From Candidatus Dadabacteria bacterium (GTDB taxonomy: Bacteria > Desulfobacterota_D > UBA1144 > Nemesobacterales > CSP1-2), in the NCBI GenBank assembly GCA_963805855.1, contig CAWDVW010000007.1:352001-416000 (forward strand): 64,000 nt of DNA, written 5' to 3'. Position 1 is the first letter of the stretch. Every line of letters begins with the position of its first letter. The notes under the pieces are model-generated. The model ran no database searches. It was not told where the DNA came from and saw only the letters and a list, made by a program, of their open reading frames with translations. Of the stretch, positions 5,659 to 38,039 are shown in pieces. The position numbers and the translations under genes were made by a program.

Positions 5659-5711
5659 GTAGGTCACGAGTCCCTTCGATTGGACTCAGGGCAGGCTTGC
5701 TCGTGACAGAC
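5659..5711. repeat. GTAG-type REP with 25-nt loop insertion
   Basis: GTAGGTCACGAG[TCCCTTCGATTGGACTCAGGGCAGG]CTTGCTCGTGAC. Confidence 0.65.
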
Positions 5712-5819
5712 GTTGTAGAAGGACTGTCCTTCTCGTCTGTTGAAGGTATATATATCTTTCGCAGCCAGCTGGTCTAGACAAGCTTATGTATTAATGCGTG
5801 GCAATTTCCAAATTCAGGC

Positions 5820-6211: not shown

Positions 6212-7072
6212 ATGAGTTCCACTAATAGAGACGAAGTACCTGCGGGAGGCTCAGGAGTTGATGACAGTCTTAAGGAGACTGTGAGGAAAAAATATAGTAA
6301 ATTAGCGCAACAGATTGCTGGTGAGGGTAGTTCCTCATGTTGCGGAGGTTACGGAGGGCAAAAAAAGTTTGATTCCATTACGTCTACTTTATATCAATCT
6401 GATCAATCGGCTGGAATCCCAATCGAAGTTTTACTAATATCCCTTGGTTGCGGTAATCCGACTGCGCTTGCCGAGCTCAATCCGGACGAGATTGTGCTTG
6501 ATCTTGGGTCGGGCGGTGGAATAGATGTATTACTGTCAGCGAAGAGGGTAGGGCCGACTGGTAAGGTATTTGGAATTGATATGAGTGATGAGATGCTGGC
6601 ATTGGCTCGTGATAATCAAAGAAAATCTGGGATTGAAAACGTAGAGTTCCTGAAAGGCGAAATTGAAAATATTCCGCTTCCAGACGGTGTTGTCGACGTT
6701 ATCATCTCAAACTGTGTTATCAACCTCTCGGTAAACAAGGATCGCGCACTAAAAGAGGCCTTCCGTGTACTGAAACCAGGCGGTCGTCTTGCGGTATCAG
6801 ATATAGTATTCAGAGGGACAATGCCTGTTGAGATTCGAAGGAACGTAGAACTCTGGATAGGTTGCATTGCTGGTGCCCTCGAGGAAACCGAGTATAAACC
6901 CAAATTGGAGCGGGCTGGTTTCGTCGATATTAGTGTGGAGGCTACACGTATCTACAATGTCGAAGATGCGAGAGGTTTTCTCCAGGATTCAGGGGTAGAT
7001 TTAGATAACCTTGCGACACCCGTCGATGGAAAAATCATGAGTGCATTTGTACGCGCTAAGAAACATAGCTAG
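6212..7072 (+). CDS. arsM: Arsenite S-adenosylmethyltransferase
   Basis: SSCCG, SLGCGNP, VLDLGSGGGID, SNCVINL, WIGCIAGAL; GGAGG RBS at 6201 supports ATG 6212. Confidence 0.92.
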   Translation: MSSTNRDEVPAGGSGVDDSLKETVRKKYSKLAQQIAGEGSSSCCGGYGGQKKFDSITSTLYQSDQSAGIPIEVLLISLGCGNPTALAELNPDEIVLDLGSGGGIDVLLSAKRVGPTGKVFGIDMSDEMLALARDNQRKSGIENVEFLKGEIENIPLPDGVVDVIISNCVINLSVNKDRALKEAFRVLKPGGRLAVSDIVFRGTMPVEIRRNVELWIGCIAGALEETEYKPKLERAGFVDISVEATRIYNVEDARGFLQDSGVDLDNLATPVDGKIMSAFVRAKKHS

Positions 7073-7125
7073 GTGCCGGGGGACAACCGTTTAAACTATA
7101 GTAGTGTTTATTCGATAGGAAAAAT

Positions 7126-7563
7126 ATGGCCAAGAAAAAAGTACTGTTCGTATGTGTTCACAATAGTGCGCGTAGTCAATTGGCCGAAGAATTGCTCAGA
7201 GAAATTGCCGGAAATAGATTTGAGGCTGAAAGCGCAGGATTAGAACCTGGCGTACTGAATCCTTATGTTGCAGAAGTTTTAAAGGAAGAGGGAATAGATA
7301 TAACCGGCAAGAAAACTAAATCGGTATTTGACCTATTAAAAGCAGGAAGGCATTACACGTATGTTGTAACAGTATGTGATGAAACATCGGCAGAGGCATG
7401 TCCGGTATTCCCCTCATGTGAGGAACGATTTCACTGGAGTTTCCCCGACCCGTCAAAATTTGTCGGGACCGATGAGGAAAAAATTGAGCAAGTGAGGGAA
7501 ATCAAGAATCTAATCAAAGCGAACATAGAGGCGTGGATAAAGGGTAGGGATAGTGCTTCCTGA
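7126..7563 (+). CDS. arsC: Arsenate reductase, LMW-PTP (thioredoxin-coupled) type
   Basis: FVCVHNSARSQ P-loop, VTVCD...ACPVFP, HWSFPDP. Confidence 0.92.
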   Translation: MAKKKVLFVCVHNSARSQLAEELLREIAGNRFEAESAGLEPGVLNPYVAEVLKEEGIDITGKKTKSVFDLLKAGRHYTYVVTVCDETSAEACPVFPSCEERFHWSFPDPSKFVGTDEEKIEQVREIKNLIKANIEAWIKGRDSAS

Positions 7564-7697
7564 ACCCTTTACAGTTTCAACGGTTTTGCTTCCTTGCCTC
7601 GTGTAGGCCAATGCTAAATGTCAATCCCGATTGGAGATTATCCAACACTTTTGACTATTCTCCCAATTCGTTAAAGAATAAAACCTCTCAGCTATTC

Positions 7698-8543
7698 CTA
7701 CCGATGCGGCATGCCTCCTCCAGGTCCCATACCGTGATCTGGTTCCATTCCATCGTGAAAGCCATCGTGATTCATGTCACCATCATGAAATCCGTCATGG
7801 TTCATATCATCGTCGTGAAAACCATCGTGGTCAAAGTCGTCATCATAATATCCATCGTGGTTGGCATCTTCAACGTTCCCACATATGTAATCGGGGTCAT
7901 GAAAATCCATAGTTCCATTCCCATTCGTGTCTACTTCTTGAAGCGGGTTATGCATGGGCATGGCAAAGCTATGGTCGGAATGTAAGGTGATCGCTCCCAG
8001 GTCGACAGGATTATTCCCCGAAGATAGGCAGAACTGATCGTCAAAATCTCCTATATGCTCCGGACCACACTGAAACGCCATAAAATCCCGAAATTCATCC
8101 ATCATTCCAGGGCCGGTATGGGCTGTAAAGCTCATTGTATAACAATCGTCAACTGGGAGATTAAGACTAAACCCTCCGGTTGCGGGGTCAGTATCAGTTT
8201 CATGGACTGAGCCATTTCTTCCCATTGCACTCACGATGAATGTTCCAGCTTGCCCTGTAGCATATGCACTGCAAGGCGAAATAAGGTCATAAAGATTCAT
8301 ACCTAAGATAATTGTTTTGTTAGTGCCCGGGTAAAATTGCATTGCTATTCCTTCACTGACAACTCCGGTGACTTCTCTCGTTTGCATTCCTGGCATAGAC
8401 CCATCATCCCCTTGGTGGTCTCCCCCTCCATCACAAGCGGTGACAAAAAATACACTGAAAAGAATCAATATTAAAAAGCCTAATTGTGGACACTCTATGT
8501 TCGGCATACGCCTTTTTCTTAGGACTCTTAATTTGTGAGACAT
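7698..8543 (-). CDS. Hypothetical lipoprotein with His/Asp decapeptide repeats
   Basis: Lipobox FFVTA-C; C-terminal (D/N)HDG(F/Y)(H/Y)DxD repeats; AAGGAG RBS. Confidence 0.75.
   Translation of the reverse strand: MSHKLRVLRKRRMPNIECPQLGFLILILFSVFFVTACDGGGDHQGDDGSMPGMQTREVTGVVSEGIAMQFYPGTNKTIILGMNLYDLISPCSAYATGQAGTFIVSAMGRNGSVHETDTDPATGGFSLNLPVDDCYTMSFTAHTGPGMMDEFRDFMAFQCGPEHIGDFDDQFCLSSGNNPVDLGAITLHSDHSFAMPMHNPLQEVDTNGNGTMDFHDPDYICGNVEDANHDGYYDDDFDHDGFHDDDMNHDGFHDGDMNHDGFHDGMEPDHGMGPGGGMPHR
7748..7870 (-). repeat. Four imperfect 30-nt tandem coding repeats
   Basis: Encodes ANHDGYYDDD-FDHDGFHDDD-MNHDGFHDGD-MNHDGFHDG. Confidence 0.8.
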
Positions 8544-18962: not shown

Positions 18963-21900
18963 TCAATCTTCGATTTTTGATAGGCCCCTTCCCCTCCAGA
19001 TTTCATAAATTGCAGGGATTATGATGAGTGTGAGAATCGTTGATGTTACGAGGCCACCCACCATAGGTGCTGCAATACGTTTCATTACGTCGGCGCCTGC
19101 CCCGTGACTCCACATAAGTGGAAGAAGCCCCATTATCATTGCCATAACGGTCATCATTTTCGGTCTAACCCTTTGTACCGCTCCGTCGTGTATGGCCTTT
19201 GCCAGGCTCTTTGAATCTTTTTGCCCTTCTTTAATCATCTTCTCATAAAACTCATCGAGGTAGATGATCATTACCACCCCTGTTTGAGCGGCAAGCCCAG
19301 CAAGAGCGATAATCCGACCCATGCCGCGACACTCATATTATATCCCAGAATATACAGGAGCCATATACCGCCGACAAGGCGAAAGGAACAGAAAGAATTA
19401 CATAAGTTTCCGTGATTGAATTAAAATTCAAGAATAAAAGGAGAAAGATTATTAGAAGAGTAAGAGGTACTACTAATTTCAGTCTCTCTTTTACCCTGTG
19501 CAGATATTGATACTGTCCGGCCACTCCATGTGATATCCCGGCGGTAGCTTTACATTTTCTCAACAACTTTTTTCGCTTTTTTTACATAACCCAATATTCC
19601 TTCCCCTCATGTCAACATAAACATAGCCAACCTTTTGCCTCCTCCTTTTTTATCTCCGGATGGGCCCGATTGAAATACGAATATCGGCCAACTGGTCTAT
19701 TGGAATCTGCGCGCCAGAGGGTGTGGAACAAAACTCTTTCAAGCTCCTTATGTCCATTCGTAGTTCCCTTGATATCTAACATTTACAGGATATCTCTCCG
19801 GACCTTCGATAGTCCTTGTAATATTATTACCCCCAATTGCTGTTTCTATAACATCTTCTACATTCTCAACATTCAGTCCATAGCTGCTGCTTGATCGCGT
19901 TTGATACTCAAAGTCCAAGAAGTATCCACCCGTTATCCTTTCTGCAAACACACTCCTCGTTCCCGGGAATCCCTGAAGCGCACCTTCTATTGTATTTCCT
20001 ATTTCCTCGATTTTTAAGCTAGGCCCAAAAACCTTTATCCCGATAGGTTCTAAAGCCCGTTGTTAGCATCTCAACGTTTGCTTTTATGGGCATCCAGAAT
20101 ATGTTCGCCATTCCGGGAAATTTTACATTCTGATTCATTTCAGATACCAGCATGTCCCATGTCATTCCTTTTCGCCACTCGCTCCTTTGGCTTGAGGGTA
20201 ACCACAGTTTCAACCATGCTGAGAGGGGCCGGATCAGTAGCCGTCTCCGCGCGACCAATTTTTCCGAAACACCCGCTCAACCTCGGGAACTCCATTAGCA
20301 TTTTATCCTGGGTATGGAGAATTTTCGCGGCTTCGGTTATAGAGATTCCCGGCACTGCGGTACGGCATGTAGAGTATCGTCCCTTCGTTCAATGCGGAGG
20401 CATGAATTCGGAGCCGAGCTGGAGAAAGGGAAAAATGGTTAAGATCAGAATTACAGCTGATGCTAATAAAACTGTTTTTTTGAAACGGAGAACTAACGTT
20501 ACCACAGGATCATAGAGCTTTATAAGTAATCGGCTTATCGGGTTTTCTCTTCCGGCCTGATTTTTCCCTTTATCAGAAGGACGATTAAAGCGGGGTGATC
20601 GTTATTGCTAGAAGAGGGCAAAGAACATGGAAAATGTTTTTGTGAAGGCGAGGGGTTTAAATAGCCTTCCCTCCTGGGATTCCAATGTAAATACAGGTAA
20701 GAAAGAAACCGTTATGATAAAAAGTGAAAAGAAAATCGGTCTTCCCACCTCTTTCATCCCATCGAGAATAACATCGAGTCTTCGTCCTTTTCCCCTCTGT
20801 CTGCCATTTCTCGAGCTTCTTGTGCACATTCTCCACAAGCACTATTGAGGCATCGACCATAGCCCCTATAGCAATCGCTATTCCACCGAGAGACATAATA
20901 TTAGAGGTTAGCTTCATGTAGTACATGGGTATAAAGGCCATTAAAACGGCGAGCGGGATCGTCAGGATAGGAATTATCGAGCTCCTGAAAGTGAAAAAGA
21001 AAAATCACAATGACGATACTTACTATAATACTCTCCTCAATGAGTTTTCCCTTCAGCGTCTCGATAGCGCGGCGATGAGGTCAGAGCGATCGTAAGTGGT
21101 TACTACTTTACACCCTTCGGGCAGAGACGGCTTTATATCTTCGATTTTTTCTTTACCTTTCGATAACATTGAGAGCATTCTCGCCGTAGCGCATAATGAC
21201 GATTCCTCCTACCGTTTCTCCTTTTCCGTCTAGCTCGGCTAGCCCCTTCTCATATCGGATCCGAGCTGCACGTTTGCGATATCCCGTATATAGACAGGAG
21301 TACCATTACCATTTGTGCCCACAAGGACCTTCTCGATGTCTTCAACCGATTTTATGTATCCCCTTCCCCTTACGAAGAATTCTGTAGTGGCGAACTCGAC
21401 AACCCTTCCTCCCACGTCGTTATTGCCCTTCCTAATTGCTTTTATAACCTGATTTATCGGTATACCATATGCGAAGAGTTTATTCGGATCAATTTCTATC
21501 TGATATTGCTTTACAAAGCCTCCCACACTTGCAACCTCAGCAACCCCGGGTACAGCTTCAAGCCAATACCGAAGATACCAATCTTGGAATGAACGCAGTT
21601 CGGCTAGATCGTTTTTTCCGCTTTCATCTACAAGGGCGTATTCAAAGACCCATCCAACCCCTGTTGCGTCCGGTCCTAATGTGGGGGTGACCCCTTCGGG
21701 AAACTTTCCTGTAACTTCGTTCAGATATTCAAGTACACGGCTCCTTGCCCAATATATATCCGTCCCATCCTCGAATATTATATATATAAAGGACAGTCCA
21801 AACATCGACTGTCCGCTAACAAACTTGACTTTGGGGGCGGCAATCATAGTGGTGACAATTGGGTATGTAATCTGGTCTTCAACGAGGTCTGGACTACGAC

Positions 21901-22063
21901 CTTCCCATTCGGTAAATACTATAACTTGGGCGTCAGAGAGGTCTGGAATTGCATCCAGTGGTGTATTTTTCATCGCCCAGAATCCCCAGCTGGCAACGAA
22001 TAATACGAAGACTACAGTTAAGAATTTGTTCCTCGCAGTAAACTCAATAATTTTCTCTATCAT
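18963..22063 (-). pseudogene. cusA: CusA/CzcA heavy-metal RND efflux permease, multiply frameshifted
   Basis: Fragments in several frames: [71 protein letters not shown]. Confidence 0.85.
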
Positions 22064-22104
22064 TTCTCTTCCCCTTAGTATGTTTTCCGTTGAGTTTTAG
22101 TTTC

Positions 22105-23611
22105 TTAATTCCATTCACATTCATAAATCAATGGATATGTCTCTGGCCTCGACTCTTGGGTCTTTCCCGGCTCCTTTTCGAATTCCATCTCATATGTAGG
22201 TTCACTTTTTTCTGGTGGATTCTCACCCCAAGTTGCCACCGCGGCCTGGATCTGGCTCTCCGCATCAATCAGGAAATTTGCGCGGGACACAACGGCGTCT
22301 CCTTTATTTAAGCCTCTCAGTACCTCATAATAATCATCGACTTTTTGACCTAGTTCGACCCTTCTTATCTGCATTTTCCCTTCCCCCATGTCCACAAAAA
22401 CGAGGTCTTGTTTTCCCGTTCGTAAAACCGCGCTGGCGGGGATGGTCAATTTTTCGCCCAGCGGAATCTCGATCTCGACATTGGCGTACATTTCAGGGAG
22501 GAGTTTTAAATCAGGATTTGGAAACTCTATTCGGACTTTTGTTGTCCTGGTCTCAGGCTGAAGGTGCGGCCATATGAACGTGACCTTTCCAGTGAAGACT
22601 TGGCCTGGAAGAGAAGCAACAGTCATCGAAACTTCTTGACCCAGCTTAACGAGCGAAATTTCATTCTCGTATATGTCCGCGTTAACCCAAACGTTGCTAT
22701 GATCTGCAATCTTATAGATTATTGTGTTTGGTTCTACAAACATGTTTTCAAAGGCGTTCTTGTACATGACATGACCCGAGATGGGAGAATAAATCACAAG
22801 GCTCTTCTTTACCTTTCCGGTTTGCTCTAGATCCCTGATTTGCTGTTCTGAAATGTCCCAGAGCTCTAGTCTCCTCTTCGAAGCTTCTAACAGGGAGTTA
22901 GCGCTATCTGAGATCTCGACGAATTTGCTGTCTCCTAGAATCCTTTTAGATTTTAGGGCAAGAAGATATTCCTCCTGGGTCGAAACAAGTTCGGGGCTAT
23001 AGATTGAAAATAGGGAGTCTCCTTTTTTTACGTGCTGCCATGTGTAATCAACAAACACCTTTTCAATCCATCCGCTTATCTTTGTGTGTATCTGCTCGAT
23101 CTTGGTTTCATCGAGCACTACCATTCCCACGGTACGGATGACCTTTGTCATATCTCGGGTGGTGACGGGCTCTCGTCTTAACACCGATGATTTGCTGCCG
23201 TTCCGGGGATACGATAAATTTGGACGGTGAATCCATACCTTGCTTGTCCGAAGAAGATTTTTCCATGCTCATTCCAGGCATATGATGCATTCCCTGCATG
23301 TCGTTCAATTTCTCACGCGGTTTTTCTTCATTCGAAGTTTGTTTTTTCATCACCGGTACTAAATCCATCTTGCAAATTGGGCAGGTTCCGGGATCTTTAA
23401 GCCTCACGGATGGATGCATTGTGCAGGTCCAGTATTCGATGTCTCCTTCTTCAGTAAGTACGGGCCTATACTGATGTTCATGGCCTTTAGAAAAGAGGGG
23501 AATCTCTTTCAAAACGGGGATCTTGTAGCCGAATTTGTAGAGAACTATGGCAACAAAAATTATGACGATGAAAACGGAAGCAATCTTTAGCATTTTTTTT
23601 CTATTAATCAT
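22105..23611 (-). pseudogene. cusB: CusB-type RND adaptor with N-terminal heavy-metal-binding domain, frameshift near 23180
   Basis: YWTCTMHP...PGTCPICKMDL; IYSPELVSTQEEYL; LLPEMYA; NFLIDAES; GGAGGA RBS before ATG 23611. Confidence 0.85.
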
Positions 23612-23633
23612 TTCAGTGTCCTCCCAATTAATT

Positions 23634-23716
23634 TCCTCCCCCACGAGTGGGGGAGGATTAAGGTGGGGGTTTACCTGCACCCCCATCCTCACCTTCCCCC
23701 TCAAGGGGGAAGGGAA
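23634..23716. repeat. REP-like double hairpin (CCTCCCC..GGGGAGG family)
   Basis: TCCTCCCCCAC-GA-GTGGGGGAGGA and CCTTCCCCCT-CA-AGGGGGAAGG in inverted arrangement. Confidence 0.75.
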
Positions 23717-24979
23717 GAGCCGTTTGATTGCGTCAAGTCCACGCCCGTAATTTCCTCCAGTCTCGCAATTGCCTTGTGATACTGTGCTAGCTGTCTGTAG
23801 TATTCAATTTCGAAGTTGAAAAGGGTCGTAAGGTTATTCAGGAGCGTGAGAAAATCTATGTCCCCGACCTGATAGCCAGATATCGCCGAATTAAGGGATA
23901 GATTTGATTGAGGTATGATGCCATCCCTGTACAGGTCGATAAGATTCTCTGACGTTTTGGCGGAGAGGTAATTATCATTTATCATGAACAAGACGTCTTG
24001 CTTTTCACTAGAGTATTCTGCCCTTGCTGCACTCAATTCTAGAGCTGCTTCCTGAACACCAAACCTCTGTTTACGCCAAAAATAGAGGGGCACTCTTAAA
24101 CCCACGTCTACTTCCCGATACCCTGGATTCCGCCACCCATCATGCCCATAATTCCCGGTGAAACACCTATGGAGAAGTCGGGATAGTATTGTTTCTTGGC
24201 CAGGTTTAGCGCTTCCGTTTCACTCTCCACAATCTTTTCTCTCATTTTCAGGATAGGAGAGTTATCTTCAATCAGTTTATAAAGATCCTTTGCCGTTAAG
24301 TTTAGGGCTGGTTTCTCTAAATCTTCCGGGGCCCCTAACGTATCCACAGGGGGCCGATTGAGAATACTGTTTATCTTTGATTCAATAACCCCTTTTTGCT
24401 GTCGGAGAATCTCAAGCTGTTCGATAAATTTAGAGACCTCTACCTGCGCCCTTATGACATCCTGCTGAATCCCAAGTCCCACCTCGTACTTCGCCTCAGA
24501 AATCTTAAGAAATTTCTCTGATAGCTCCTTATTCTTTTGCGTGATTTCGATTGACTTAACAATCAGGTACCAGTCATAATACGCCTGCTTAAGATCCGCT
24601 GTTACCTTCCTTAAAACCGCTTCGTAAGATTGCTCTTGTGCTTCAGCCTTTTGTTTGGCGACCTTTTCTTTGAGGGAAAGCTTTCCGGGAAATGGTAGTT
24701 CTTGAGTAAATGGAAACCGTAACATACTATTGCCGAATTCATTGAGGGTTATACGGTCAAATTCCACGTTTTGCCACCTGACTCCAATAGTTGGGTCAGG
24801 CAACGAGCCTTCCTGCGAAGGCCGCTTGGTAGACGCTTCCCACCGAGCCCTCGCAGCTTTTATGTCGGGGTTGTTTGAAGGGCCTCTTCTACAAGTGATT
24901 CTAGCCTTACAGGTTGATTTGCGTGAGAATTGGCTCCTAAAAAAACCGTAACAATTATCATTCCTAAGAAAATTTTCAT
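23701..24979 (-). pseudogene. TolC/CusC-family outer membrane factor, frameshifted
   Basis: LPDP..G, QELPFPGKL.L, KYEVG.G.QQDV..AQ, YQVG.IDFLTLL; frame breaks near 24106 and 24880-24950. Confidence 0.8.
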
Positions 24980-26432: not shown

Positions 26433-28610
26433 ATGAGCAAGTTGATAATAGCTTCAAACAGATTGCCCATAACGATTACTAAGAGAAAGGGGAAATTTAA
26501 GGTTCAATCAAGTACCGGCGGTCTGGTAACAGCATTAGGCGGATTAGAGGATTCTCAACGGCACGTATGGATAGGATGGCCGGGCATTTCTATGAGTCCT
26601 TCTAATCCCGAAGCAAACGATATAAAGGCCTTATTGGAACCCGAGGATTATCACCCGGTTTTTCTCTCCAGACACGACATTGATGATTATTATCACGGTT
26701 TTTGTAACGAAACGATTTGGCCTCTTTTTCACTACTTTGTCCAGTTTGCCGTGTATGATAAGGATTATTGGAAAGCCTATAAAAGGGTGAATGAGGCATT
26801 CTGTGATGAGATAATGGAGATAGCTGGGCCGGAGGACGTTATCTGGATACATGATTACCATCTTATGATTCTGCCTAAGCTCTTAAAGGAAAAGTTGCCA
26901 GGGGCAAAAATTGGATTCTTTTTGCATATACCGTTTCCGTCTTCCGAAATCTTCCGCTTGATTCCCTGGTGCAAGGATATCATAGAAGGCCTTCTCGGGG
27001 CTGACTTAATAGGGTTTCACACCTTTGATTACGTCAGGCATTTTCTAGAAAGCGTCCGACGTATATTGGGATACGAGCATGCGCTTGGTCAAATCACGGT
27101 GCATTCCCGTGCTGTAAAGGTTGATGCCTTTCCAATGGGGGTGGACTACGAAAAATTTTCAAGCGCCGTTCACAATCCGGATGTTCAAAAGAGAGTTAGA
27201 AGTCTGCGGCAGGAAATAGGCGAGGAGTTTAACATAATCCTATCGATTGATAGGCTTGATTATACGAAAGGAATTCCTCAAAGGCTGGAAGCATTCGATC
27301 TCTTTTTGAAACGAAACCCCGGCTACAAGGGCAAGGCGATATTAATATTGGTCGCAGTACCGTCCCGCACAGAGGTTAAGCGTTACAAAATATTAAAACA
27401 ACAGGTAGACAATCTCGTTGGAGATATAAATGGTCGACATGGCAAAATTGGCTGGATTCCTATTTGGTATTTGTATCGGTCATTCCGATTTAACGACCTC
27501 GCAGCCCTATACTCTATTTCCGATGTTATTTTTGTTACGCCCCTGAGGGATGGTATGAACTTAATTGCTAAGGAGTATGTTGCAACTAAAAATGATGGAA
27601 ATGGAGTACTCATACTGGGAGAAATGGCTGGAACGGCAAAGGAGTTAATCGAGGCCATTATCATAAATCCAAATGATGTAGAAGCAACAGCAGATTCTCT
27701 GAAAGTCGCATTAGAAATGCCTACTGACGAACGGGCTAGTCGAATGGAAACTATGAGACTCAGACTTAAGCGTTACGATGTCAGAAGGTGGGTAAGCGAT
27801 TTTATGGAAAAGCTCGATCATATCACGGATGTTCAGAAGCAGATGAAATCAAGAGTATTATCACCGGATTTTAGAAGGAAAATAACAGAAGGGTATTCAG
27901 AGGCTCAAAATCGCTTATTCTTGCTGGACTATGACGGCACATTGATGCCATTCAATGAAAACCCAGAAAGGGTAGAGCCAGACCATGATCTAGTTGAGAC
28001 ACTGACGTCTCTGGTTTCCAGGCAAAATAATCAATTGGTCGTTATTAGTGGTCGGGGCAGAAAAACCTTAGAGGGATGGGTTGATAAATTAACCGATGGC
28101 TTAGTCGCAGAACACGGGGTATGGATTAAGGACGAAGAGTGGAAAGCTATCGAAAACCTCTCGGATGAATGGAAGAAAGACATCAGGCCGATACTCGAAA
28201 CTTATGTCGATAGGACTCCGGGCTCATTTATTGAAGAGAAGGATTATTCTCTAGTCTGGCATTTTAGAAAAGTCGATCCGGCATTGGCCATGGTTAGGGT
28301 AGGGGAGTTAAAGGAAATTCTTTTACATATAACTGGAAGCTTTAATGTAGGGGTTCTCGAGGGTAACAAGGTGATTGAGATCAAGAATGCTGAGGTAAAT
28401 AAGGGTAGGGCGGCGCGGTATTGGCTTTCTAAGGCGAAATGGGATTTTATATTATCGATTGGCGATGATTCCACAGATGAAGATATCTTTGAGGCGCTCC
28501 CAGATTGGGCATATTCGATTAAAGTCGGCTTAGGCCCATCAAAGGCAAGATTTACTATCCCTTCCTTTATCGAAGTGAGAGAGCTACTAAAGGAATTGGC
28601 AGTCGTGTGA
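26433..28610 (+). CDS. otsAB: Bifunctional trehalose-6-phosphate synthase/phosphatase
   Basis: SNRLP, GGL, WIHDYHL, FFLHIPFP, DRLDYTKGI, DGMNL; HAD domain LDYDGTL, GDD.TDED. Confidence 0.95.
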   Translation: MSKLIIASNRLPITITKRKGKFKVQSSTGGLVTALGGLEDSQRHVWIGWPGISMSPSNPEANDIKALLEPEDYHPVFLSRHDIDDYYHGFCNETIWPLFHYFVQFAVYDKDYWKAYKRVNEAFCDEIMEIAGPEDVIWIHDYHLMILPKLLKEKLPGAKIGFFLHIPFPSSEIFRLIPWCKDIIEGLLGADLIGFHTFDYVRHFLESVRRILGYEHALGQITVHSRAVKVDAFPMGVDYEKFSSAVHNPDVQKRVRSLRQEIGEEFNIILSIDRLDYTKGIPQRLEAFDLFLKRNPGYKGKAILILVAVPSRTEVKRYKILKQQVDNLVGDINGRHGKIGWIPIWYLYRSFRFNDLAALYSISDVIFVTPLRDGMNLIAKEYVATKNDGNGVLILGEMAGTAKELIEAIIINPNDVEATADSLKVALEMPTDERASRMETMRLRLKRYDVRRWVSDFMEKLDHITDVQKQMKSRVLSPDFRRKITEGYSEAQNRLFLLDYDGTLMPFNENPERVEPDHDLVETLTSLVSRQNNQLVVISGRGRKTLEGWVDKLTDGLVAEHGVWIKDEEWKAIENLSDEWKKDIRPILETYVDRTPGSFIEEKDYSLVWHFRKVDPALAMVRVGELKEILLHITGSFNVGVLEGNKVIEIKNAEVNKGRAARYWLSKAKWDFILSIGDDSTDEDIFEALPDWAYSIKVGLGPSKARFTIPSFIEVRELLKELAVV

Positions 28611-28745: not shown

Positions 28746-28774
28746 TTGACATAATAGTCCATATCCTCTAAAAT
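28746..28774 (+). promoter_or_regulatory. Near-consensus sigma70 promoter
   Basis: TTGACA-17 nt-TAAAAT; AGGAGG RBS at about 28800. Confidence 0.75.
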
Positions 28775-28812
28775 TGATGTTAATTTAAAAGACAAAACAA
28801 GGAGGGTATATA

Positions 28813-30723
28813 ATGGATTTAATTAGAATGCTGGAAAAGACATTGAGTACATCTTCTAATTTAACTTGGAAGGGCTTGAAGGCTGTAAATGAATTTATGC
28901 CTGCTAAACCCTTTCAGCCAAACTGGGCACATGCACCGCTACCTAAATCACAAAAGAGAACTAAGCCCCCTCTTGGATTGCCTAGGGAAACCGATTCTCT
29001 TTGCCCGAAATGTGTGAGAGAATTGAGGGATGATATACAAGCAGACCGTATAAACTGGCAGGATGTGATAAAAACCAATCCAGGAATGATAACAGCTCGT
29101 ATCTACGAGGATGATGGAAAGGTTCTGATGGAAAAAACCTGCGAAAGACATGGACGATGTGAAGATTTAATCGCTATTGATAAAGACTTTTTCTTACATA
29201 TGGAATCACTATTTATGGGCGATGACATGCCAATTCCCGAAAATATGCTTCGCAACCATGGTGCTTCATCAATTAAATACAGCCGGGGAGCCTGCCTCAA
29301 TGTAGACCTCACAAATCGTTGTAACATGATGTGTAGGCCCTGCTACATGGACGCAAACCAGGTTGGATATGTACATGAACTTACAATTGACGACGTTAGA
29401 AAAATTTTGACAGACGCCGCAAATTTTAAACCAAGACGGCAGACAGCCGTAATGTTTGCGGGTGGCGAACCCACCATTTCGCCTATTTTTCTTGAGTCAT
29501 GCAAGATCGCAAGGGAACTCGGATTCTTTTCCGTCCAAGCCGCGACAAATGGTTTGAGATTTGCCCTTGAGCCGGGTTTTGCTGAAAAAGCAAAGGAGGC
29601 CGGCTTACGAATAGCTTATCTTCAGTTTGACGGCGTTAGTAATCAAGCGCATGCTCATAGAAAAATTGCTAACCTTTTCGATGTAAGGCAAAGAATTATA
29701 GAGAATTGCCGTAAAGCAGGAATAAATGTCATGATAGTTCCAACCATTGTTAACACGGTCAATAATGACCAGGTTGGACCGATACTCGATTTCGCAATCA
29801 ATAATGTTGGAACGATTGCGGGGATAGCCTTTCAGCCTGTGTCATTTACCGGGAGAGACGATGACATACCCGATGATCAGAGGAGAAGAGAGAGGTACAC
29901 GACTTCTCACCTGGCTCACGAGATTTCAAAATATACGGACGGAGTTATAGACCCGATGAGGGACTGGTTTCCCCTTTCGGCGCTTGCGCCATTTGCAGAT
30001 GCTGTAGACCTAACCAGGGGTATGGACGATTCCTGGGGCTCAATGAAATGTGGATGCCATCCAAACTGTGGTGCTGGTTTTGTTCTATTGGTTAATAAGC
30101 AAACCAAGGAAGTTGTTCCGGTGACAAAGATCATTAATTTCAAACAGTTGTTAAAAGACATGCTTGATATAGCAGATAATTATCGCGGTCCCAAGTGGGC
30201 AATGGCGCAAATGGGTCTATCTCTCATGAGGAACTACAAGCCTGATGAAGCTCCCAAGGGATTAGACTTCCGTAAGCTCGTAAATATCTTCCTTGAGCAA
30301 TCGGGCGCTAAAAACTTTGGATCGCCGACCAATCCTGAATTCGATTGGGGTATTATGTTTATTGCAGCGATGTGGTTTCAGGATGTATATAATTATGACT
30401 TCAGACGAACTGAAAGGTGTGTAATACCGTACGGAACTCAGATGGGAGAAATTTCCTTCTGTGCGTATAATACAGGAATCGGGTGGAGGTGGATTGTAGA
30501 AAAGGAATTCCAGAATGCAACAACAAAAGAGTGGTTTAAGGAAAAAGGAAGGCACCCAATCTATGCGAACCAGAAACCAATAGATCTTCCTGAATACGAA
30601 ACACCCGTTGACTTAAACGGGAATCCGGTACAATGGAAGGGAAGGTTGTCAAAGGTTAAATCGCCGGAATCCATAAATGGAAAAGACAAAGCAGTGGAAG
30701 AGGGTGTATCGGTTACTACATAA
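28813..30723 (+). CDS. tes: Tetraether synthase (Tes/GDGT-MAS, MJ0619)-like radical SAM enzyme
   Basis: T.SLCPKC..A.IYE.DGKV.M.KTC..HG, DLTNRCNMMCRPC, FAGGEPT, QAATNG, YLQFDG, FQPVSFTGR, HPNCG, M.FQD.YNYD..R..RC.I.Y, SFCAYN. Confidence 0.8.
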   Translation: MDLIRMLEKTLSTSSNLTWKGLKAVNEFMPAKPFQPNWAHAPLPKSQKRTKPPLGLPRETDSLCPKCVRELRDDIQADRINWQDVIKTNPGMITARIYEDDGKVLMEKTCERHGRCEDLIAIDKDFFLHMESLFMGDDMPIPENMLRNHGASSIKYSRGACLNVDLTNRCNMMCRPCYMDANQVGYVHELTIDDVRKILTDAANFKPRRQTAVMFAGGEPTISPIFLESCKIARELGFFSVQAATNGLRFALEPGFAEKAKEAGLRIAYLQFDGVSNQAHAHRKIANLFDVRQRIIENCRKAGINVMIVPTIVNTVNNDQVGPILDFAINNVGTIAGIAFQPVSFTGRDDDIPDDQRRRERYTTSHLAHEISKYTDGVIDPMRDWFPLSALAPFADAVDLTRGMDDSWGSMKCGCHPNCGAGFVLLVNKQTKEVVPVTKIINFKQLLKDMLDIADNYRGPKWAMAQMGLSLMRNYKPDEAPKGLDFRKLVNIFLEQSGAKNFGSPTNPEFDWGIMFIAAMWFQDVYNYDFRRTERCVIPYGTQMGEISFCAYNTGIGWRWIVEKEFQNATTKEWFKEKGRHPIYANQKPIDLPEYETPVDLNGNPVQWKGRLSKVKSPESINGKDKAVEEGVSVTT

Positions 30724-30730: not shown

Positions 30731-30771
30731 AATGGGGACAGACACTTATTAATAAGTGCCTGTCCCTGATT
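30731..30771. terminator. Long hairpin between convergent genes (REP-like or bidirectional terminator)
   Basis: GGGACAGACACTTATT-AATAAGTGCCTGTCCC. Confidence 0.6.
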
Positions 30772-30894: not shown

Positions 30895-31239
30895 TTAATA
30901 TCCAAAAAATACGGACGCTCCGATAAATCCGGGGATGACATAGAAGAGTGGCACATAATTTCCGTAGGCTTTACCGTAGTAATGACGTGAATGATAATCA
31001 TGGTTCCTGTGGTGGCCATGTCGATTAAAACGACCGTAATGATTTTCTTGATTATTTTGGTGCCAATGACCCTTATGATGTCCTGGGTTTCCATCGTGGC
31101 CTTTGTAGCTATGATCAGCACGATGTTCATACCTTCCCCTATGGTTTTTATGCCCGTCTGAGGATTTGGCTGCACCAATGTTCGTCGCGGCTAAGGAAAA
31201 TATCAACATAAGTATCGGCACGATAAAAAGTCTGTTCAT
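30895..31239 (-). CDS. Small secreted His/Gly/Arg-rich protein
   Basis: Signal peptide, His-rich core, AGGAG RBS. Confidence 0.65.
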   Translation of the reverse strand: MNRLFIVPILMLIFSLAATNIGAAKSSDGHKNHRGRYEHRADHSYKGHDGNPGHHKGHWHQNNQENHYGRFNRHGHHRNHDYHSRHYYGKAYGNYVPLFYVIPGFIGASVFFGY

Positions 31240-34877: not shown

Positions 34878-35492
34878 TCATTCAACAGATTGTCGAATCT
34901 TTAGAAGGTGGTCGCTGGTTAAATCCTCAACGGTGTCTACGTCTCTTAGCATTTCTAAACACTCGGACTTAATGCCATTGTGTCGCAATCTTTTCATAGT
35001 CTGATCGAATACGAGATTTGTGCTCCAGTCGATCTCATGAAAAACCTCCGGGATCAATCTTCTCAATCCAAGAAGATAATACCCACCATCAAAGGAGGGA
35101 CCTACGACCGCCTCCGACACCTCGAGTTTTTCGAAGGCCTTTACGATCGTCTCTGTTGTGATTTGAGGGCAGTCCGTTCCAATGACGACTGCTTTTGCCG
35201 CTCCGAGTGAGAAGGCATGACTGAAGGCATTGGACATCCTTTCCCCAAGTGAATTCCCTTTCTGTGCCATGAATGATAAGCCATTAAATTTCAGCCAGCG
35301 CACGACATCGTTTGTTCTTTCAGGTGGGTCGAAGAATATAATCTTCCTATAGTCGGCCAATTTCGATAAGTTGTAGATGAGGCTTTCCGCCATCTTTCTG
35401 TATAGCAGAGCGGCATTTTCTGAACCTATATTTTCAGCGAGCCGAGTTTTTACCTTCCCGGGCTCTGGATACTTAACAAATATTAGGAGCAT
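34878..35492 (-). CDS. TIGR04282/DUF2064 family glycosyltransferase-like protein (arsenosugar-associated)
   Basis: IFVKYPEPGKVKTRLA, Q.G..LGERM..AF, VIGTDCP, GPS.DGGYYLLGL, IDWST, L.DVDT.ED. Confidence 0.85.
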   Translation of the reverse strand: MLLIFVKYPEPGKVKTRLAENIGSENAALLYRKMAESLIYNLSKLADYRKIIFFDPPERTNDVVRWLKFNGLSFMAQKGNSLGERMSNAFSHAFSLGAAKAVVIGTDCPQITTETIVKAFEKLEVSEAVVGPSFDGGYYLLGLRRLIPEVFHEIDWSTNLVFDQTMKRLRHNGIKSECLEMLRDVDTVEDLTSDHLLKIRQSVE

Positions 35493-35516
35493 AGGATTTA
35501 TGTGGCTTTACTTCTG

Positions 35517-38039
35517 CTAACAGCAGGTTCCTCCGTCTACGCAGCATCTATAATCCTCGTTCACCTCTCTCGTAGGATCGGTAATAATAAACATCCCTTC
35601 ATAGGGAGGTTTGGCGAGTTTTTCTGCCGTGTCCGTGCAGATCTCCACGGATTCATTCCGGGGGAACAGATGGCCTTCCTCGTCGGCGATGGCTTTTAGC
35701 GGTCCCAGGTAAATTGCGCTCTGACCGATGAAGACGCATCCTGCGCTCTTTTCGAATTTATAACCCCTCACCGTGATCGAATAAAACCGATGGTTTTCTA
35801 CTGTTTTCCAGTAAATCTTGTTCAGGAGCTGTAGCCCGTAGAACCCTGCCTGTTCCAGGTATGAAATAAACTGCTCCTCCGTTAAAGATCCCGCGATACA
35901 TTCGCCCCAGAGTTCGTCATTTGTCACGATATGTTCCGGGACCTCCCTTTCAGAGATAATATCGGAAAGGACAATTCTTCCGTGATTCTTAAGTATACGC
36001 CACATCTCGGAAAAGACGCGCTTCTTGTTGGGTGAGAGGTTGATCACACAATTGGATGTGATTAAATCTACCGTCTTGTTTACAACGGGTATTTCTTCCA
36101 GGAATCCTCTCCTGAATTCTACGACGTCATAACCGAGATTTTTTGCAACAGTCGGTTTACATTCGTTTGCGATTCCAAGCATCTGATCCGTCATATCGAC
36201 TCCGATTACCCTGCCGTTTTTCCCAACCTTCTTTGCGGCGATAAAGCAATCGATTCCGGCACCGGAGCCGAGATCGACCACGGTCTCGCCCGGCTTTACA
36301 TTCGCAATGCTGATCGGGCTTCCACAGCCGTAGAATCTCTCAATGACATCATTCGGTATATGGCTGATGTCTTCTCCGGGATAGCTTGTTGGGCAGCATA
36401 GCTCCTTCTGAGGCTCCTCGGCTGCCCTTCCGTAGAACTCTCTGACAACTTCGCGCGACTTGTCAATATCAAACGTCAACACACAGTTTGAGTGGGATAA
36501 TTCAATATTGAATTCCGAGATTCCTACTGCCCCGCCATTTCGAATCCCATTTCCATTCATCTCATTCATGCCGCACGAGACAGCGCCTTCGCCCATCGCC
36601 AAAAATACACGGGGTGCATCGAAACCCGATTTATTGTTATGTTCAATTGCCTTTTCTTCGGCAAGCTCTAACAGGGTCCGGACTATCATGTATTCATGAA
36701 GGTCGGAGTAGGGGTCGGCTCCGGCTAGATCCCTTTTGCCGAAAGTGGCTCTGTTGTAAAAATAGGAGTGCTCGATGTCGCCACCCCCGCATATGAATTT
36801 CAAAAAGCAGTTGCTGCACTTTGACCTGTTCTGGACGGTCGCGCCTCTGAACATCTCAAAAACCTTGCTCTCTTCCCATATCTTCTTAAGTGACGTTTCT
36901 TTTATACTTCCTGAGCTTAATTCCTTCGTATTCGCCAGCGCTGCAGAGGGATAAACCTCGCCGTCGGAATAGACGCAGAGGCTGTCCCAGCATGAATTGC
37001 TGAGATCAAACTTCGTGAACTTTCTTGTCCTCAGCTTTGCCCTTATGGTTTCAAAATTATCGACAGTAATGCCAAGCTCGTCCGCGGTTTTCTTAACCTC
37101 TTTCACCACCTCAATCAACTCATATGTGGGAACAACCAGGTTCCTGCCGCCATTCATTATCCTTCCTGTCTGGTGTACCCAGAGCAGGTGATGGTTATTT
37201 ACGCCAAGCCGGGCCAATAGCCTGGTGATATCGGGCACATCTTTGGCATTGTGGGAATTTACGACGGTGGTTACCGTTGGGCTGAGTCCGGCCTTAACGG
37301 CCGACTCGATTCCTTTCGTAATTTTCTCAAAGGTTCCTTCACCCCTGATTGGATCATTTGCATCGGCATTCGAGCCATCGAGGCTGATCTGTGGCTTTAC
37401 GCGACCTCTGCCTGCTTCCAATAGGAGATCAATGTTGTGTCTCTTATTAAAAGACATTCCGTTGGTCAATATTATTAGCTCGGAATATTCATCGCGCGTA
37501 ACATATTCGATCAGCTCGAAGATATCCTTTCTTATGAACGGCTCACCACCGGTAAAGTAAAACCTGAATACACCGAGCTCTCGGCCTTCATCTATTATGC
37601 GTGTTATGCTGTCTGTCGGTAGACCCTTATCTTCCCAGGGTCCGGAGCTTACCAGGCAATGGGCACACTGGAGGTTACAGGAGTTATTGGTGTGTATCCA
37701 AAGCTCGCTTAGCCGGTCGGCCTTCAAGTATTCACCCCGTCCCCTGTAAGGCGCCCTCACAAATGGGTTGAGAGATAAGATCTTTTCCCTCAAAGCATCC
37801 TTTACGAATGTATTGACGTGTACCCAAGCTTTGGTTGTGCTTAACCCGAATTCCTTCGCATATAGTTTTACGATGTCATTGAAATTTCTCTTACCGTCCA
37901 TGTAGCTGAAAATTCTGGCGCCACGGGAATCTGTGCCGATCCAGTTTGGTCCTTCAGGGTCGATCAGGACGTGAAGATCATTCAGATGAATATCTGAGTA
38001 GGGTGGGGCGTGCAGGATTGATTTTTCAGATAAATCCAT
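35517..38039 (-). CDS. Fusion of PqqD/RRE-like, radical SAM, SPASM and ArsM-like methyltransferase domains
   Basis: CNLQCAHC, FTGGEP; SPASM C..C.....CGGG; ELCCP, FYGCGSP, DLGSGAGIDC, SNCVINL, WGECIAG; C-term CC..CC. Confidence 0.85.
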   Translation of the reverse strand: MDLSEKSILHAPPYSDIHLNDLHVLIDPEGPNWIGTDSRGARIFSYMDGKRNFNDIVKLYAKEFGLSTTKAWVHVNTFVKDALREKILSLNPFVRAPYRGRGEYLKADRLSELWIHTNNSCNLQCAHCLVSSGPWEDKGLPTDSITRIIDEGRELGVFRFYFTGGEPFIRKDIFELIEYVTRDEYSELIILTNGMSFNKRHNIDLLLEAGRGRVKPQISLDGSNADANDPIRGEGTFEKITKGIESAVKAGLSPTVTTVVNSHNAKDVPDITRLLARLGVNNHHLLWVHQTGRIMNGGRNLVVPTYELIEVVKEVKKTADELGITVDNFETIRAKLRTRKFTKFDLSNSCWDSLCVYSDGEVYPSAALANTKELSSGSIKETSLKKIWEESKVFEMFRGATVQNRSKCSNCFLKFICGGGDIEHSYFYNRATFGKRDLAGADPYSDLHEYMIVRTLLELAEEKAIEHNNKSGFDAPRVFLAMGEGAVSCGMNEMNGNGIRNGGAVGISEFNIELSHSNCVLTFDIDKSREVVREFYGRAAEEPQKELCCPTSYPGEDISHIPNDVIERFYGCGSPISIANVKPGETVVDLGSGAGIDCFIAAKKVGKNGRVIGVDMTDQMLGIANECKPTVAKNLGYDVVEFRRGFLEEIPVVNKTVDLITSNCVINLSPNKKRVFSEMWRILKNHGRIVLSDIISEREVPEHIVTNDELWGECIAGSLTEEQFISYLEQAGFYGLQLLNKIYWKTVENHRFYSITVRGYKFEKSAGCVFIGQSAIYLGPLKAIADEEGHLFPRNESVEICTDTAEKLAKPPYEGMFIITDPTREVNEDYRCCVDGGTCC

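Follow-up and report, generated by a model that had tools for sequence, protein, structure and literature searches.

Does a bacterium that carries a relative of Tes (or GDGT-MAS), the tetraether synthase found in archaea, use it to couple lipid tails, and which lipids would it join? The question is raised by one gene, the only copy in its genome, in the window, that is, the whole stretch of 64,000 nucleotides analysed here; the first-pass annotation had taken it for a Tes-like enzyme and a candidate producer of membrane-spanning lipids. Proxies of past temperature and pH in wide use are built on branched GDGTs and iso-diabolic-acid lipids. Among the enzymes, Mss and Ger have been confirmed, but overall the producers and enzymes of these lipids are still unsettled. 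In the present study we propose, at about even chances, that the product of the gene is a functional member of a long bacterial sister family of Tes, which would couple ester-linked acyl lipid tails and would not make a tetraether. The locus is composed as follows.

28746..28774, + strand: putative sigma-70-like promoter (TTGACA, 17 nt, TAAAAT), agreeing with the consensus at 11 of 12 positions, more than any other site in the 3 kb scanned
28800..28806, + strand: AAGGAGG, a ribosome-binding site separated from the ATG by 7 nt, read from the sequence
28813..30723, + strand: open reading frame of the long Tes-like radical SAM enzyme without N-cluster, 636 aa plus stop, ATG start
28813..28983, + strand: N-terminal extension (residues 1-57) without archaeal Tes counterpart; the Tes profile begins at residue 60
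28981..29175, + strand: rubredoxin-like zinc-ribbon domain (residues 57-121; PF23545), ligands C64, C67, C110 and H113
29176..29292, + strand: linker (residues 122-160, approximately) that aligns with the archaeal [4Fe-4S]N motif and is devoid of conserved Cys
29308..29796, + strand: radical SAM core (residues 166-328; PF04055), with C170xxxC174xxC177 at 29320-29343
30049..30462, + strand: C-terminal cluster domain by alignment, C413-G-C415-H416-P-N-C419, M520, C536, Y540, C550
30601..30720, + strand: disordered C-terminal tail (residues 597-636), pLDDT below 50
30735..30766, no strand assigned: hairpin with a 14-bp stem, probable shared terminator of convergent genes, terminator score on the minus strand only

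The protein matches the Pfam families Radical_SAM (PF04055, 4.4e-20) and Zn_ribbon_HMPTM (PF23545, 1.9e-13), and covers positions 2-484 of the 486 in the NCBIfam profile of Tes (NF045702, E 2.1e-104). A HMMER comparison with 7tol_A gives E 1.3e-76 over query residues 93-574. As judged from sequence, the match to the Tes family is far above chance, and the protein is a full-length homolog of archaeal Tes/GDGT-MAS at the superfamily level. The motifs on which the earlier assignment was built are all found in the translation: SLCPKC (62-67), KTCERHG (108-114), CNMMCRPC (170-177), YLQFDG (269-274), FQPVSFTGR (340-348), HPNCG (416-420), MWFQDVYNYD (520-529) and FCAYN (549-553). The AF2 model (pLDDT 85.4, pTM 0.87) superimposes on 7TOM/7TOL with a target-normalised TM of 0.88 and an rmsd of 3.1 Å over 530 aligned columns (Foldseek E 6.2e-39), the next-best fold being MoaA at TM 0.51. 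The model thus predicts that the overall four-domain GDGT-MAS fold is retained, the N-cluster region not being separately resolved.

Analysis of the metal sites in 56 family members indicates which parts of the archaeal machinery are kept. The zinc-ribbon ligands C64, C67, C110 and H113 are invariant, C110 and H113 aligning to C33 and H36 of MJ0619, and the radical SAM cysteines C170, C174 and C177 are likewise invariant. At the C-terminal site C419, C536 and C550 align to three Cys in common with 7tol_A, and M520 and Y540 correspond to Met439 and Tyr459; all five residues are kept in at least 90% of the sequences. We infer from the alignment that C419, C536, C550 and M520 may be the C-terminal cluster ligands. 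In the long family C413 and C415 are near-invariant and H416 is invariant beside the cluster Cys C419. The [4Fe-4S]N cluster of MJ0619 is held by C73, C77 and C80 plus a His (Lloyd 2022). Its motif was said to be lacking here, and the alignment bears this out: no query Cys stands opposite the three-Cys motif CPYDCGLC of 7tol_A ('NGCPYDCGLCPNH' in the HMMER alignment), and CPxDCGxC is missing from all scanned full-length sequences at least 39% identical to the query. The N-terminal extension is also real, lying ahead of the start of the Tes profile; it is modelled with a helix at residues 3-28 (pLDDT 85-93), and W19, P36, W38, P42, P52, L54, G55 and P57 are kept in at least 90% of the 56 members.

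The assignment to the Tes/MJ0619 family therefore holds as homology (1.3e-76 to 7TOL, TM 0.88) and not as membership of the curated equivalog, since the score of 349.9 bits lies below the cut-off of 450. One of the four metal centres is missing as well. Members of the long clade score 299-351 bits on NF045702, whereas the N-cluster-bearing proteins mostly reach 450-730 and the canonical copies of sister genera 543-553. The protein does count as a Tes homolog under the loose literature criterion (E < 1e-50, identity > 20%; Zeng 2022, PMC8941075). It also falls short of the TrsS profile NF045646, which gives 208.1 bits against a cut-off of 490 and matches over its N-terminal 300 positions only. 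In an unrooted tree a clade of 46 rows including the query is split from 40 N-cluster-bearing rows with an SH-aLRT of 100, and the query lies inside a subclade of eight rows, also at 100; these 40 rows are not sorted into bacterial and archaeal ones, and the one named, P0170, is a Thorarchaeota protein. The long clade spans Acidobacteriota, Polyangia, Gemmatimonadota and Latescibacterota, and the query carries its markers, the N-terminal extension and the CGCHPNCG motif. The resemblance to acidobacterial homologs suggested beforehand is thus well founded (49% identity to the copy in the 'Ca. Solibacter usitatus' MAG L067, common clade at SH-aLRT 100), and the phylogeny that had been proposed as a check groups the protein with them and places it, in this unrooted tree, outside the whole set of 40 sampled proteins that bear the N-cluster.

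We propose a mechanism that follows the one put forward for GDGT-MAS, with two [4Fe-4S] clusters and a rubredoxin-like iron in place of three clusters. The radical SAM cluster bound by C170, C174 and C177 would cleave SAM, and the 5'-deoxyadenosyl radical would remove a hydrogen at the end of a lipid alkyl chain, from its terminal carbon, the resulting substrate radical being parked on the C-terminal [4Fe-4S] cluster held by C419, C536 and C550 with M520 as a labile ligand. A second SAM cleavage would then activate a second chain end with formation of a C(sp3)-C(sp3) bond. The substrate in this organism would most likely be an ester-linked fatty-acyl glycerolipid, and the product a diacyl lipid, either membrane-spanning (diabolic-acid-type) or macrocyclic, and not a tetraether. 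The same chemistry may lead elsewhere, for instance to a single lipid closed into a macrocycle, to a cross-link in mid-chain or to a C-S adduct that is stable; the products of GDGT-MAS itself include macrocyclic archaeol and GTGT as well as an intermediate bound through sulfur (Lloyd 2022). The extra C413, C415 and H416 together with the lost N-terminal cluster could alter the chemistry, and a second small radical SAM enzyme and a B12-radical SAM enzyme accompany the gene in some genomes. No observation sets such outcomes apart from the main reading. The enzyme retains the Met and Tyr that 1000 archaeal homologs have in common, and we consider a different lipid product unlikely.

The coupling of ester-linked acyl tails draws its context from relatives of the window's organism. 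In genome G008 and its metagenome twin L177 a fusion of AMP-binding, ACP and acyltransferase domains, a GT2 gene, a DAGK_cat gene and the Tes-like gene lie on one strand with intergenic gaps of 3, 3 and 85 nt. The arrangement shared by G007 and L176, its twin, opens with a divergent B12-radical SAM gene and continues with the Tes-like gene, GT2, a 379-aa radical SAM gene, a small ORF, the same fusion and DAGK_cat. These two clusters belong to sister genera and have a common gene set in a different order, and their Tes-like proteins are 75-77% identical to that of the window. The window's own copy is solitary, flanked by otsAB on one side and a malic enzyme gene on the other; all four partner genes have orthologs in the window's genome, where they are dispersed. 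Furthermore, among 61 genomes of the order the carriers of the fusion also hold a Tes-type gene in seven of seven cases, and those of the small radical SAM gene in eight of eight. The lipid cluster is found in two of the four arrangements of the query's own clade and is missing from L172 and from the window's genus. In other phyla the gene immediately upstream of the long type encodes an acyl-AMP ligase at two loci from Acidobacteriota and at one from Gemmatimonadaceae; MMPL and a lipid A-type acyltransferase are also present at one of the three. Across phyla no neighbour is widely shared: in 80 loci (±8 kb, ORFs clustered) no family occurs in more than nine, the commonest being an ABC ATPase (9), and DAO, cyclophilin and a histidine kinase (6 each), as counted after removal of antisense shadows of the gene and with ORF calling that is crude for high-GC DNA. 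The small radical SAM enzyme, in a 371-aa form, was considered as a candidate Gms and rejected, its RS motif beginning at residue 32 and its C-terminal Cys numbering only about six; archaeal Gms exceeds 420 aa and combines a helical domain at the N-terminus with a complete SPASM domain. Nor is it an obligate partner, since it occurs in only two of five long-type genomes of other phyla. As gene order and domain content, the clusters of the sister genera give new support to a lipid role of the long-type gene.

These clusters bear on the reading that the substrate is not a lipid but a pterin, as in the legacy name 'dihydro-6-hydroxymethylpterin dimethyltransferase', a peptide or a cofactor. The HMPTM label persists in JGI names and in the name of the Pfam domain, the window's gene has no lipid neighbours and falls outside the curated Tes family, and the related TrsS family provides a scaffold used in other systems. 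However, MJ0619 was re-assigned to lipid chemistry by structure and assays (Lloyd 2022), the orthologs at 75-77% identity sit in acyl-lipid clusters, the TrsS score is 208 bits against 490, and the whole GDGT-MAS fold is retained including its C-terminal domain. A non-lipid substrate is thus distinctly improbable.

Which lipid backbone the acyl-coupling enzyme would act on is indicated by a comparison within the family (f1/f2), where five genomes carry the long type, six the canonical Tes (543-553 bits) and none both. Long-type and canonical-type genomes are interleaved on the MetH tree, which together with the either/or distribution fits interchangeable roles. The gene is absent from five of the 15 family genomes, and one of those, 99% complete, has neither type, so that the gene appears dispensable. 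Ger/PlsA-type genes are present in five of the six canonical-type genomes and in none of the five long-type genomes of this lineage, counts that lack independence, as only a handful of related genera contribute to them. In the window's genome we found no DUF2229, the Ger/PlsA signature, no ElbD-like multidomain reductase and no archaeal-type lipid genes, and the match to PcrB/GGGPS is of 21 bits, below the cut-off; at a completeness of 93.8% these absences are provisional. The lack of DUF2229, of an ElbD reductase and of PcrB above cut-off, together with the distribution of Ger/PlsA (0/5 vs 5/6), leads us to prefer an ester over an ether substrate. The pattern of a long type without Ger fails outside this lineage, where long type and DUF2229 occur together in two of five genomes, the Solibacter-labelled MAG and Polyangium fumosum. 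Finally, 26 of the genome's 27 other radical SAM matches were scanned against NCBIfam (E ≤ 1e-20), with no Mss profile available: seven received no family name and none was named Mss.

The gene content of this genome speaks against a tetraether of the branched GDGT type, implied by the earlier annotation. A true synthase of this kind would condense iso-alkyl diethers whose chains are ether-linked, the reaction suggested for Solibacter usitatus; the protein does share one clade with acidobacterial homologs including the Solibacter-labelled copy, that MAG holds the long type only (313 bits) along with a DUF2229 PlsA/Ger-like protein, and in the accessible part of Halamka 2022 one or both of the S. 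usitatus Tes homologs are proposed for the diether condensation. However, the search for ether-lipid genes found neither Ger/PlsA nor an ElbD-like reductase fusion in the window's genome, GGGPS stayed below threshold, and DUF2229 occurs in none of the five long-type genomes of the lineage. We therefore hold this product very unlikely.

An enzyme that couples acyl tails presupposes a gene in working order. The scanned region holds 13 promoter-like sites against 7.2 ± 2.5 in shuffles, so the gene's promoter is plausible and not proven; the near-consensus promoter reported before stands as a consensus match of 11/12, with its -35 hexamer at 28746. The terminator described as the gene's own is partly upheld: the hairpin begins 12 nt past the stop codon with its 14-bp stem, whereas the scored T-run belongs to the minus strand, serving a convergent small ORF, and the plus-strand tail is weakly T-rich. 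Members of the genus share 94-96% of the protein's amino acids; between genera the identity is 77%, with MetH at 69-75%. Two salt-marsh RNA libraries hold contigs identical to the gene, which is weak evidence of use because DNA carry-over is possible; being contigs and not raw reads, they are silent on the start, end and level of the transcript, and the parts not covered carry no weight. The sequencing runs that best hold this DNA, small-share runs, carry a salt marsh label. Efflux genes near the gene in the window appear fragmented. We conclude that the gene is conserved and probably in use. That it is a decaying or idle copy, as its absence from five of 15 family genomes, the 99%-complete genome with neither type and the broken look of the nearby efflux genes might suggest, is extremely improbable in view of the intact frame, ribosome-binding site, promoter-like site and conservation of all ligands, an identity at least equal to that of MetH and the identical RNA-library contigs.

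Taken against the coupling of ester-linked acyl tails are the missed curated cut-off, the missing N-cluster and the solitary position in the window. A further point against it is that Tes homologs were reported in only three of 14 acidobacteria that produce iso-diabolic acid, and that the screening of other producers yielded none. The family offers an observation that is new: two Tes types occur in either/or fashion within one bacterial family, with different partners. A broader and rather doubtful reading is that in this sediment lineage the two types serve as alternative modules: the canonical enzyme, with three clusters, would work with Ger/PlsA on ether lipids, and the long enzyme, with two, would join the fusion (an ElbD-like acyl-loading acyltransferase without the reductase), GT2 and the DAG-kinase-like protein in an undescribed pathway to ester-linked membrane-spanning (glyco)lipids, such that loss of the N-cluster would mark an ether-to-ester switch. 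The gene by itself leaves the picture of branched-lipid enzymes unchanged. The lineage nevertheless serves as a compact natural comparison, in which sister genera have canonical Tes together with Ger, or else the long type and no Ger, and the two clusters of four to six genes supply concrete partner genes for the question of product and backbone. A caution follows for metagenome surveys, in which not every Tes match stands for brGDGT potential.

Compared with known systems, the protein is nearest to GDGT-MAS/Tes of Methanocaldococcus jannaschii (MJ0619; PDB 7TOL, 7TOM; NF045702), which it matches collinearly over the full length at TM 0.88. Both have the rubredoxin-like site of three Cys and a His, the CxxxCxxC cluster, the three C-terminal Cys and the equivalents of Met439 and Tyr459. 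Unlike MJ0619, it has no [4Fe-4S]N motif, is longer at the N-terminus by about 58 residues that include a conserved helix, carries a 40-residue disordered tail and an extra CxC-H beside the cluster Cys, and stands at 30% identity and 349.9 bits against the cut-off of 450. Bacterial Tes homologs are themselves already known and have been catalogued since 2022; by the BLAST criteria of those surveys (Zeng 2022, PMC8941075; PMC11868695; PMC10087280) the protein belongs with them, in a clade including Acidobacteriota and former Deltaproteobacteria. Zeng 2022 and the later surveys have the hypothesis of bacterial membrane-spanning lipids in common with this study. In the accessible parts of PMC8941075, PMC11868695 and PMC10087280 the long N-cluster-less clade and the canonical bacterial copies are not told apart, and these surveys report no activity test for bacterial Tes homologs of either type. 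The accessible part of Table S21 of Sahonero-Canavesi 2022 likewise does not separate the two types. The partner protein of 847-857 aa has three domains in common with ElbD of Myxococcus xanthus, an acyl-AMP ligase, an ACP and an acyltransferase resembling AGPAT (domain order in PMC9131029), but is without the FAR1-like reductase domain tied to ether formation; reductase-less ElbD homologs exist outside myxobacteria, without lipid data (PMC9131029). The confirmed bacterial membrane-spanning lipid synthase is Mss of Thermotoga and Thermoanaerobacter, a radical SAM enzyme different from Tes that joins two fatty-acyl tails of ester or ether lipids under anoxic conditions (PMC13159169), and for which homology is called at E ≤ 1e-50 and identity of at least 30% (PMC13159169). 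Its reaction is the one proposed here for the long-type enzyme, and it is remotely related to Tes according to Sahonero-Canavesi 2022 (PMC13159169). If the alternative-module reading were true, the long-type pathway would be the Tes-derived counterpart of Mss.

The Tes-like gene of the window is a single ORF, whose surroundings are as follows.

21239-24803, minus strand: Cus-like efflux operon, fragmented in appearance
26433-28610, plus strand: OtsA-OtsB fusion gene (trehalose-6-phosphate synthase/phosphatase, 725 aa), directly upstream of the Tes-like gene
28746-28774, plus strand: promoter-like site TTGACA-17-TAAAAT (consensus match, 11/12)
7 nt 5' of the Tes-like ATG, plus strand: AAGGAGG
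28813..30723, plus strand: Tes-like ORF, 636 aa, ATG start
30735-30766: hairpin 3' of the Tes-like stop, 14-bp stem, T-run on the minus strand
30895-31239, minus strand: small His-rich ORF, 114 aa
downstream of the Tes-like gene, minus strand: malic enzyme gene
34878-38039, minus strand: 839-aa PqqD, radical SAM, SPASM and class I methyltransferase fusion (Pfam only)

The first-pass annotation had placed the start at 28746 because the promoter-like site begins there. Its observation of a Tes-like gene is borne out by the intact frame, by every one of the listed Tes motifs in the translation and by a match to GDGT-MAS in both sequence and fold. The gene's "own terminator" is partly right: a hairpin does follow the stop, but the associated T-run is on the minus strand and would terminate the convergent His-rich ORF. 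The latter has a hydrophobic N-terminus, a very His-rich body and no Pfam match. There is no lipid gene among the two direct neighbours, otsAB and malic enzyme, and this order is kept in genus mates (G005, and loci L170 and L171). In the Cus-like operon the outer-membrane factor is split in two ORFs, an HMBD piece and the HlyD/CusB ORF overlap, and the RND pump is in frame for its first 273 aa only, reflecting either pseudogenes or assembly frameshifts. The 839-aa fusion shows an unusual architecture and is followed by a DUF2064/CofC-like gene.

Pfam analysis of the Tes-like protein located a Radical_SAM domain at residues 166-328 and the HMPTM/MJ0619 zinc ribbon at 57-121. The NCBIfam Tes model NF045702 was covered over almost its whole length (profile positions 2-484 of 486) with 349.9 bits, below its curated cut-off of 450 bits, and the TrsS model gave 208 bits versus a cut-off of 490 bits. 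GDGT-MAS (7tol_A) was the sole solved relative by sequence (E 1.3e-76, residues 93-574). An AlphaFold2 model built from 56 family sequences (pLDDT 85.4, pTM 0.87) matched 7TOM/7TOL in Foldseek with an E of 6e-39, a target-normalised TM of 0.88 and 30% identity, the second-best fold being MoaA with a TM of 0.51.

GDGT-MAS is described as having four metal centres (Lloyd et al. 2022, PMC9433317; 2026 review, PMC13459092): a rubredoxin-like iron (C9, C12, C33, H36), the [4Fe-4S]N cluster (C73, C77, C80 plus a His), the radical-SAM cluster, and the [4Fe-4S]C cluster with three Cys and a labile Met439, Tyr459 being conserved. With an offset of 20 between PDB chain and native numbering, inferred from C33/H36 in the printed 7tol_A alignment, the window protein keeps C64/C67/C110/H113 at the rubredoxin-like site, C170/C174/C177 at the radical-SAM cluster, and C419, C536, C550, M520 (Met439) and Y540 (Tyr459) at [4Fe-4S]C, the Cys, His and Met residues being putative metal ligands. 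The first two sets are invariant in the 56-sequence alignment and the C-terminal set is kept in at least 90% of it. Where GDGT-MAS has the [4Fe-4S]N motif, the protein lacks any Cys, in agreement with the missing auxiliary motif noted at first. Unlike archaeal Tes, the long family, that is, the bacterial relatives lacking this motif, has near-invariant C413 and C415 and an invariant H416 (CGCHPNCG). The N-terminal extension, also noted previously, comprises residues 1-57, with a confident modelled helix at 3-28 and Trp/Pro positions conserved across the 56 sequences.

A word-indexed protein search scored at least 8000 relatives; among the matches listed, named ones (Polyangium, Sorangium, Latescibacteria, Zixibacteria) lie at 53-57% identity and only metagenome proteins above 57%. 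When representatives clustered at 50% identity were searched exhaustively, 5774 proteins matched at E <= 0.001 and 415 reached E <= 1e-30. Relatives are also encoded by 593 of 599 candidate stretches from species genomes. The closest of the best 80 belongs to a MAG labelled Thermodesulfobacteriota (96%), and the rest of the 80, at 57% or less, to Acidobacteriota, Polyangia, Gemmatimonadota, Latescibacterota and a few Pseudomonadota. Among the Acidobacteriota is a copy from a 'Ca. Solibacter usitatus' MAG (49% identity), which upholds the proposed resemblance to acidobacterial homologs. On NF045702 long-clade members score 299-351 bits and proteins with a second CxxxCxxC mostly 450-730. An unrooted tree (86 rows, 611 columns, IQ-TREE quick, LG+G4) separates 46 long-type from 40 N-cluster-bearing rows with SH-aLRT 100, and the window protein falls in a subclade of 8 rows (support 100) with genus mates and 75-77% relatives; being unrooted, the tree fits the long clade as sister to all Tes or as derived within Tes. 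The window protein is genuine and conserved, belongs to the long bacterial sister clade of Tes and is probably active. The Tes identity first proposed stands at the level of this clade but not at that of the curated equivalog.

Tes-type matches occur in 11 genomes of a 120-genome phylum sample. The long type is present in five (77-100% identity), namely the window's genome (G000), its genus mates G005 and G006, and G007 and G008. Six others (G002, G004, G012-G014, G015; loci L127-L132) encode canonical-type proteins of 583-590 aa with CPEHCGLC and two CxxxCxxC motifs, the gene lying directly downstream of priA in all six; three of these proteins scanned reached 543-553 bits on NF045702, above the cut-off. 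Both types never share one of the 11 genomes, and five genomes of the window's family have neither. In a MetH tree long- and canonical-type carriers are interleaved: the window's genus pairs with a genus having neither type (support 100), and G007 groups with the canonical-type G002/G004 (support 89). This is only suggestive, because it concerns one gene with modest support.

DUF2229 is the signature domain of the ether-bond enzyme Ger/PlsA (Sahonero-Canavesi 2022, PMC13159169). Within a 61-genome order sample it was found in G004, G012, G013, G014, G015 and G016, in frames of 1170-1234 aa and one partial of 446 aa (G004), that is, in 5/6 canonical-type versus 0/5 long-type genomes. The Ger/PlsA-like protein of about 1200 aa is encoded away from the canonical Tes locus in those five. 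G000 (3.11 Mb, 9 contigs, 93.8% complete) carries a single Tes-type gene, and the ether-lipid genes pointed to by the first-pass annotation were not detected in it: the profile search gave no DUF2229 match, and there is no ElbD-like reductase fusion, because NAD_binding_4 matches are confined to 308-365-aa frames. PcrB/GGGPS gave a single 21-bit match in this assembly, below threshold. G000 has 28 radical SAM matches; with the Tes-like gene and one fusion protein excluded, an NCBIfam scan of 26 (E <= 1e-20) named 19 (MiaB, MtaB, HemW, BioB x2, CofG/H, MqnC/E, RlmN, QueE and others) and left 7 unnamed. Of these, CofG and CofH belong to synthesis of the F420 chromophore, and MqnC and MqnE to the futalosine pathway for menaquinone.

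In G008 an AMP-binding/PP-binding/Acyltransferase fusion (849 aa), a GT2 (391 aa), a DAGK_cat protein (325 aa) and the long Tes-like gene lie in this order on the same strand, separated by 3, 3 and 85 nt, close to an Mla transporter. In G007 the genes after the Tes-like one are GT2, a 379-aa radical SAM, a 120-aa ORF, an 847-aa fusion of the same type and DAGK_cat, and a divergent B12-binding radical SAM lies upstream. These two arrangements recur on metagenome contigs L176 and L177 (90-98% identity), that of the window in L170 and L171, and L172 carries a fourth; a lipid cluster is present in two of the four arrangements within the protein's clade. G000 has orthologs of every partner gene, dispersed.

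C7:188247-190817: fusion ortholog
C2:544989-547710: GT2 and small radical SAM, adjacent
C2:283119-284069: DAGK_cat ortholog

The fusion resembles ElbD in its ligase, ACP and AGPAT-like domains and differs in having no FAR1-like reductase; reductase-less ElbD homologs occur outside myxobacteria, reported without lipid data (review PMC9131029). In the order sample all 7 fusion carriers (5 long, 2 canonical) and all 8 small radical SAM carriers (4 long, 4 canonical) are Tes-type genomes, and GT2 is found in G000 and 15/16 other genomes of f1 and f2, families including the window's own; these counts are not independent, because the genomes are close kin. At C2:544989-547710 (loci L112, L145, L149) GT2 directly precedes a 371-aa radical SAM whose Cys tail is twitch/SPASM-like (C283, C301, C338xC340xxxC344). 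By sequence, the solved protein closest to this radical SAM is GDGT-MAS, in the core only (E 4e-10). The radical SAM is 77-81% identical across genera, and most of the relatives it has at about 50-59% identity come from Acidobacteriota.

In other phyla the gene immediately upstream of the long-type one encodes an acyl-AMP ligase at three loci, L015 and L020 of Acidobacteriota and L034 of Gemmatimonadaceae; L015 has MMPL and a lipid A-type acyltransferase as well. A B12-binding radical SAM adjoins the long gene in three lineages, with 45% identity between the G007 and Gemmatimonadales copies, and by analogy with Gmm it is a candidate lipid methylase.

G007 (L139), 6258-7703, minus strand: B12-binding radical SAM beside the long Tes-like gene
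L033, 10067-11551: B12-binding radical SAM adjacent to it
L034, 9921-11438: B12-binding radical SAM adjacent to it
L040 (Latescibacterota), 4242-5729: B12-binding radical SAM about 2 kb upstream of it

Five genomes with the long type, all from other phyla, speak against a simple rule: their Tes-type matches are all below cut-off, DUF2229 is present in two (a Solibacter-labelled MAG and Polyangium fumosum), the small radical SAM in two and a full-length fusion homolog in three.

The metagenomes with the best DNA matches are labelled salt marsh, and contigs identical to window 29165-29470 and 30197-30433 are present in two RNA libraries from salt marsh, giving a weak hint, DNA carry-over being possible, that the gene is used.

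The best reading, to which we give an even chance, is that the enzyme couples ester-linked acyl lipids tail to tail through radical C-C bond formation; present evidence makes a tetraether unlikely as this organism's product. A role in brGDGT synthesis was proposed by Zeng 2022 (PMC8941075) for bacterial Tes homologs, of which that study found 456. Mss, the bacterial membrane-spanning lipid synthase, and Ger were confirmed by Sahonero-Canavesi 2022 (PMC13159169), who report Tes homologs in only 3/14 iso-diabolic-acid-producing acidobacteria and in none of the other screened producers of diabolic or iso-diabolic acid. A 2025 Black Sea survey (PMC11868695) states bacterial Tes activity as unconfirmed, and among the papers that literature searches listed, none announced an experimental test of such activity in its title or abstract opening. 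Bacterial Gms homologs were described as clustered with tes or mss (Garcia 2024, PMC11214058). Bacterial Tes-like proteins of this kind are already known, with a putative function; what is new here is the either/or pattern of the long type versus canonical Tes plus Ger, together with the named operon partners of the long-type gene in close orthologs.
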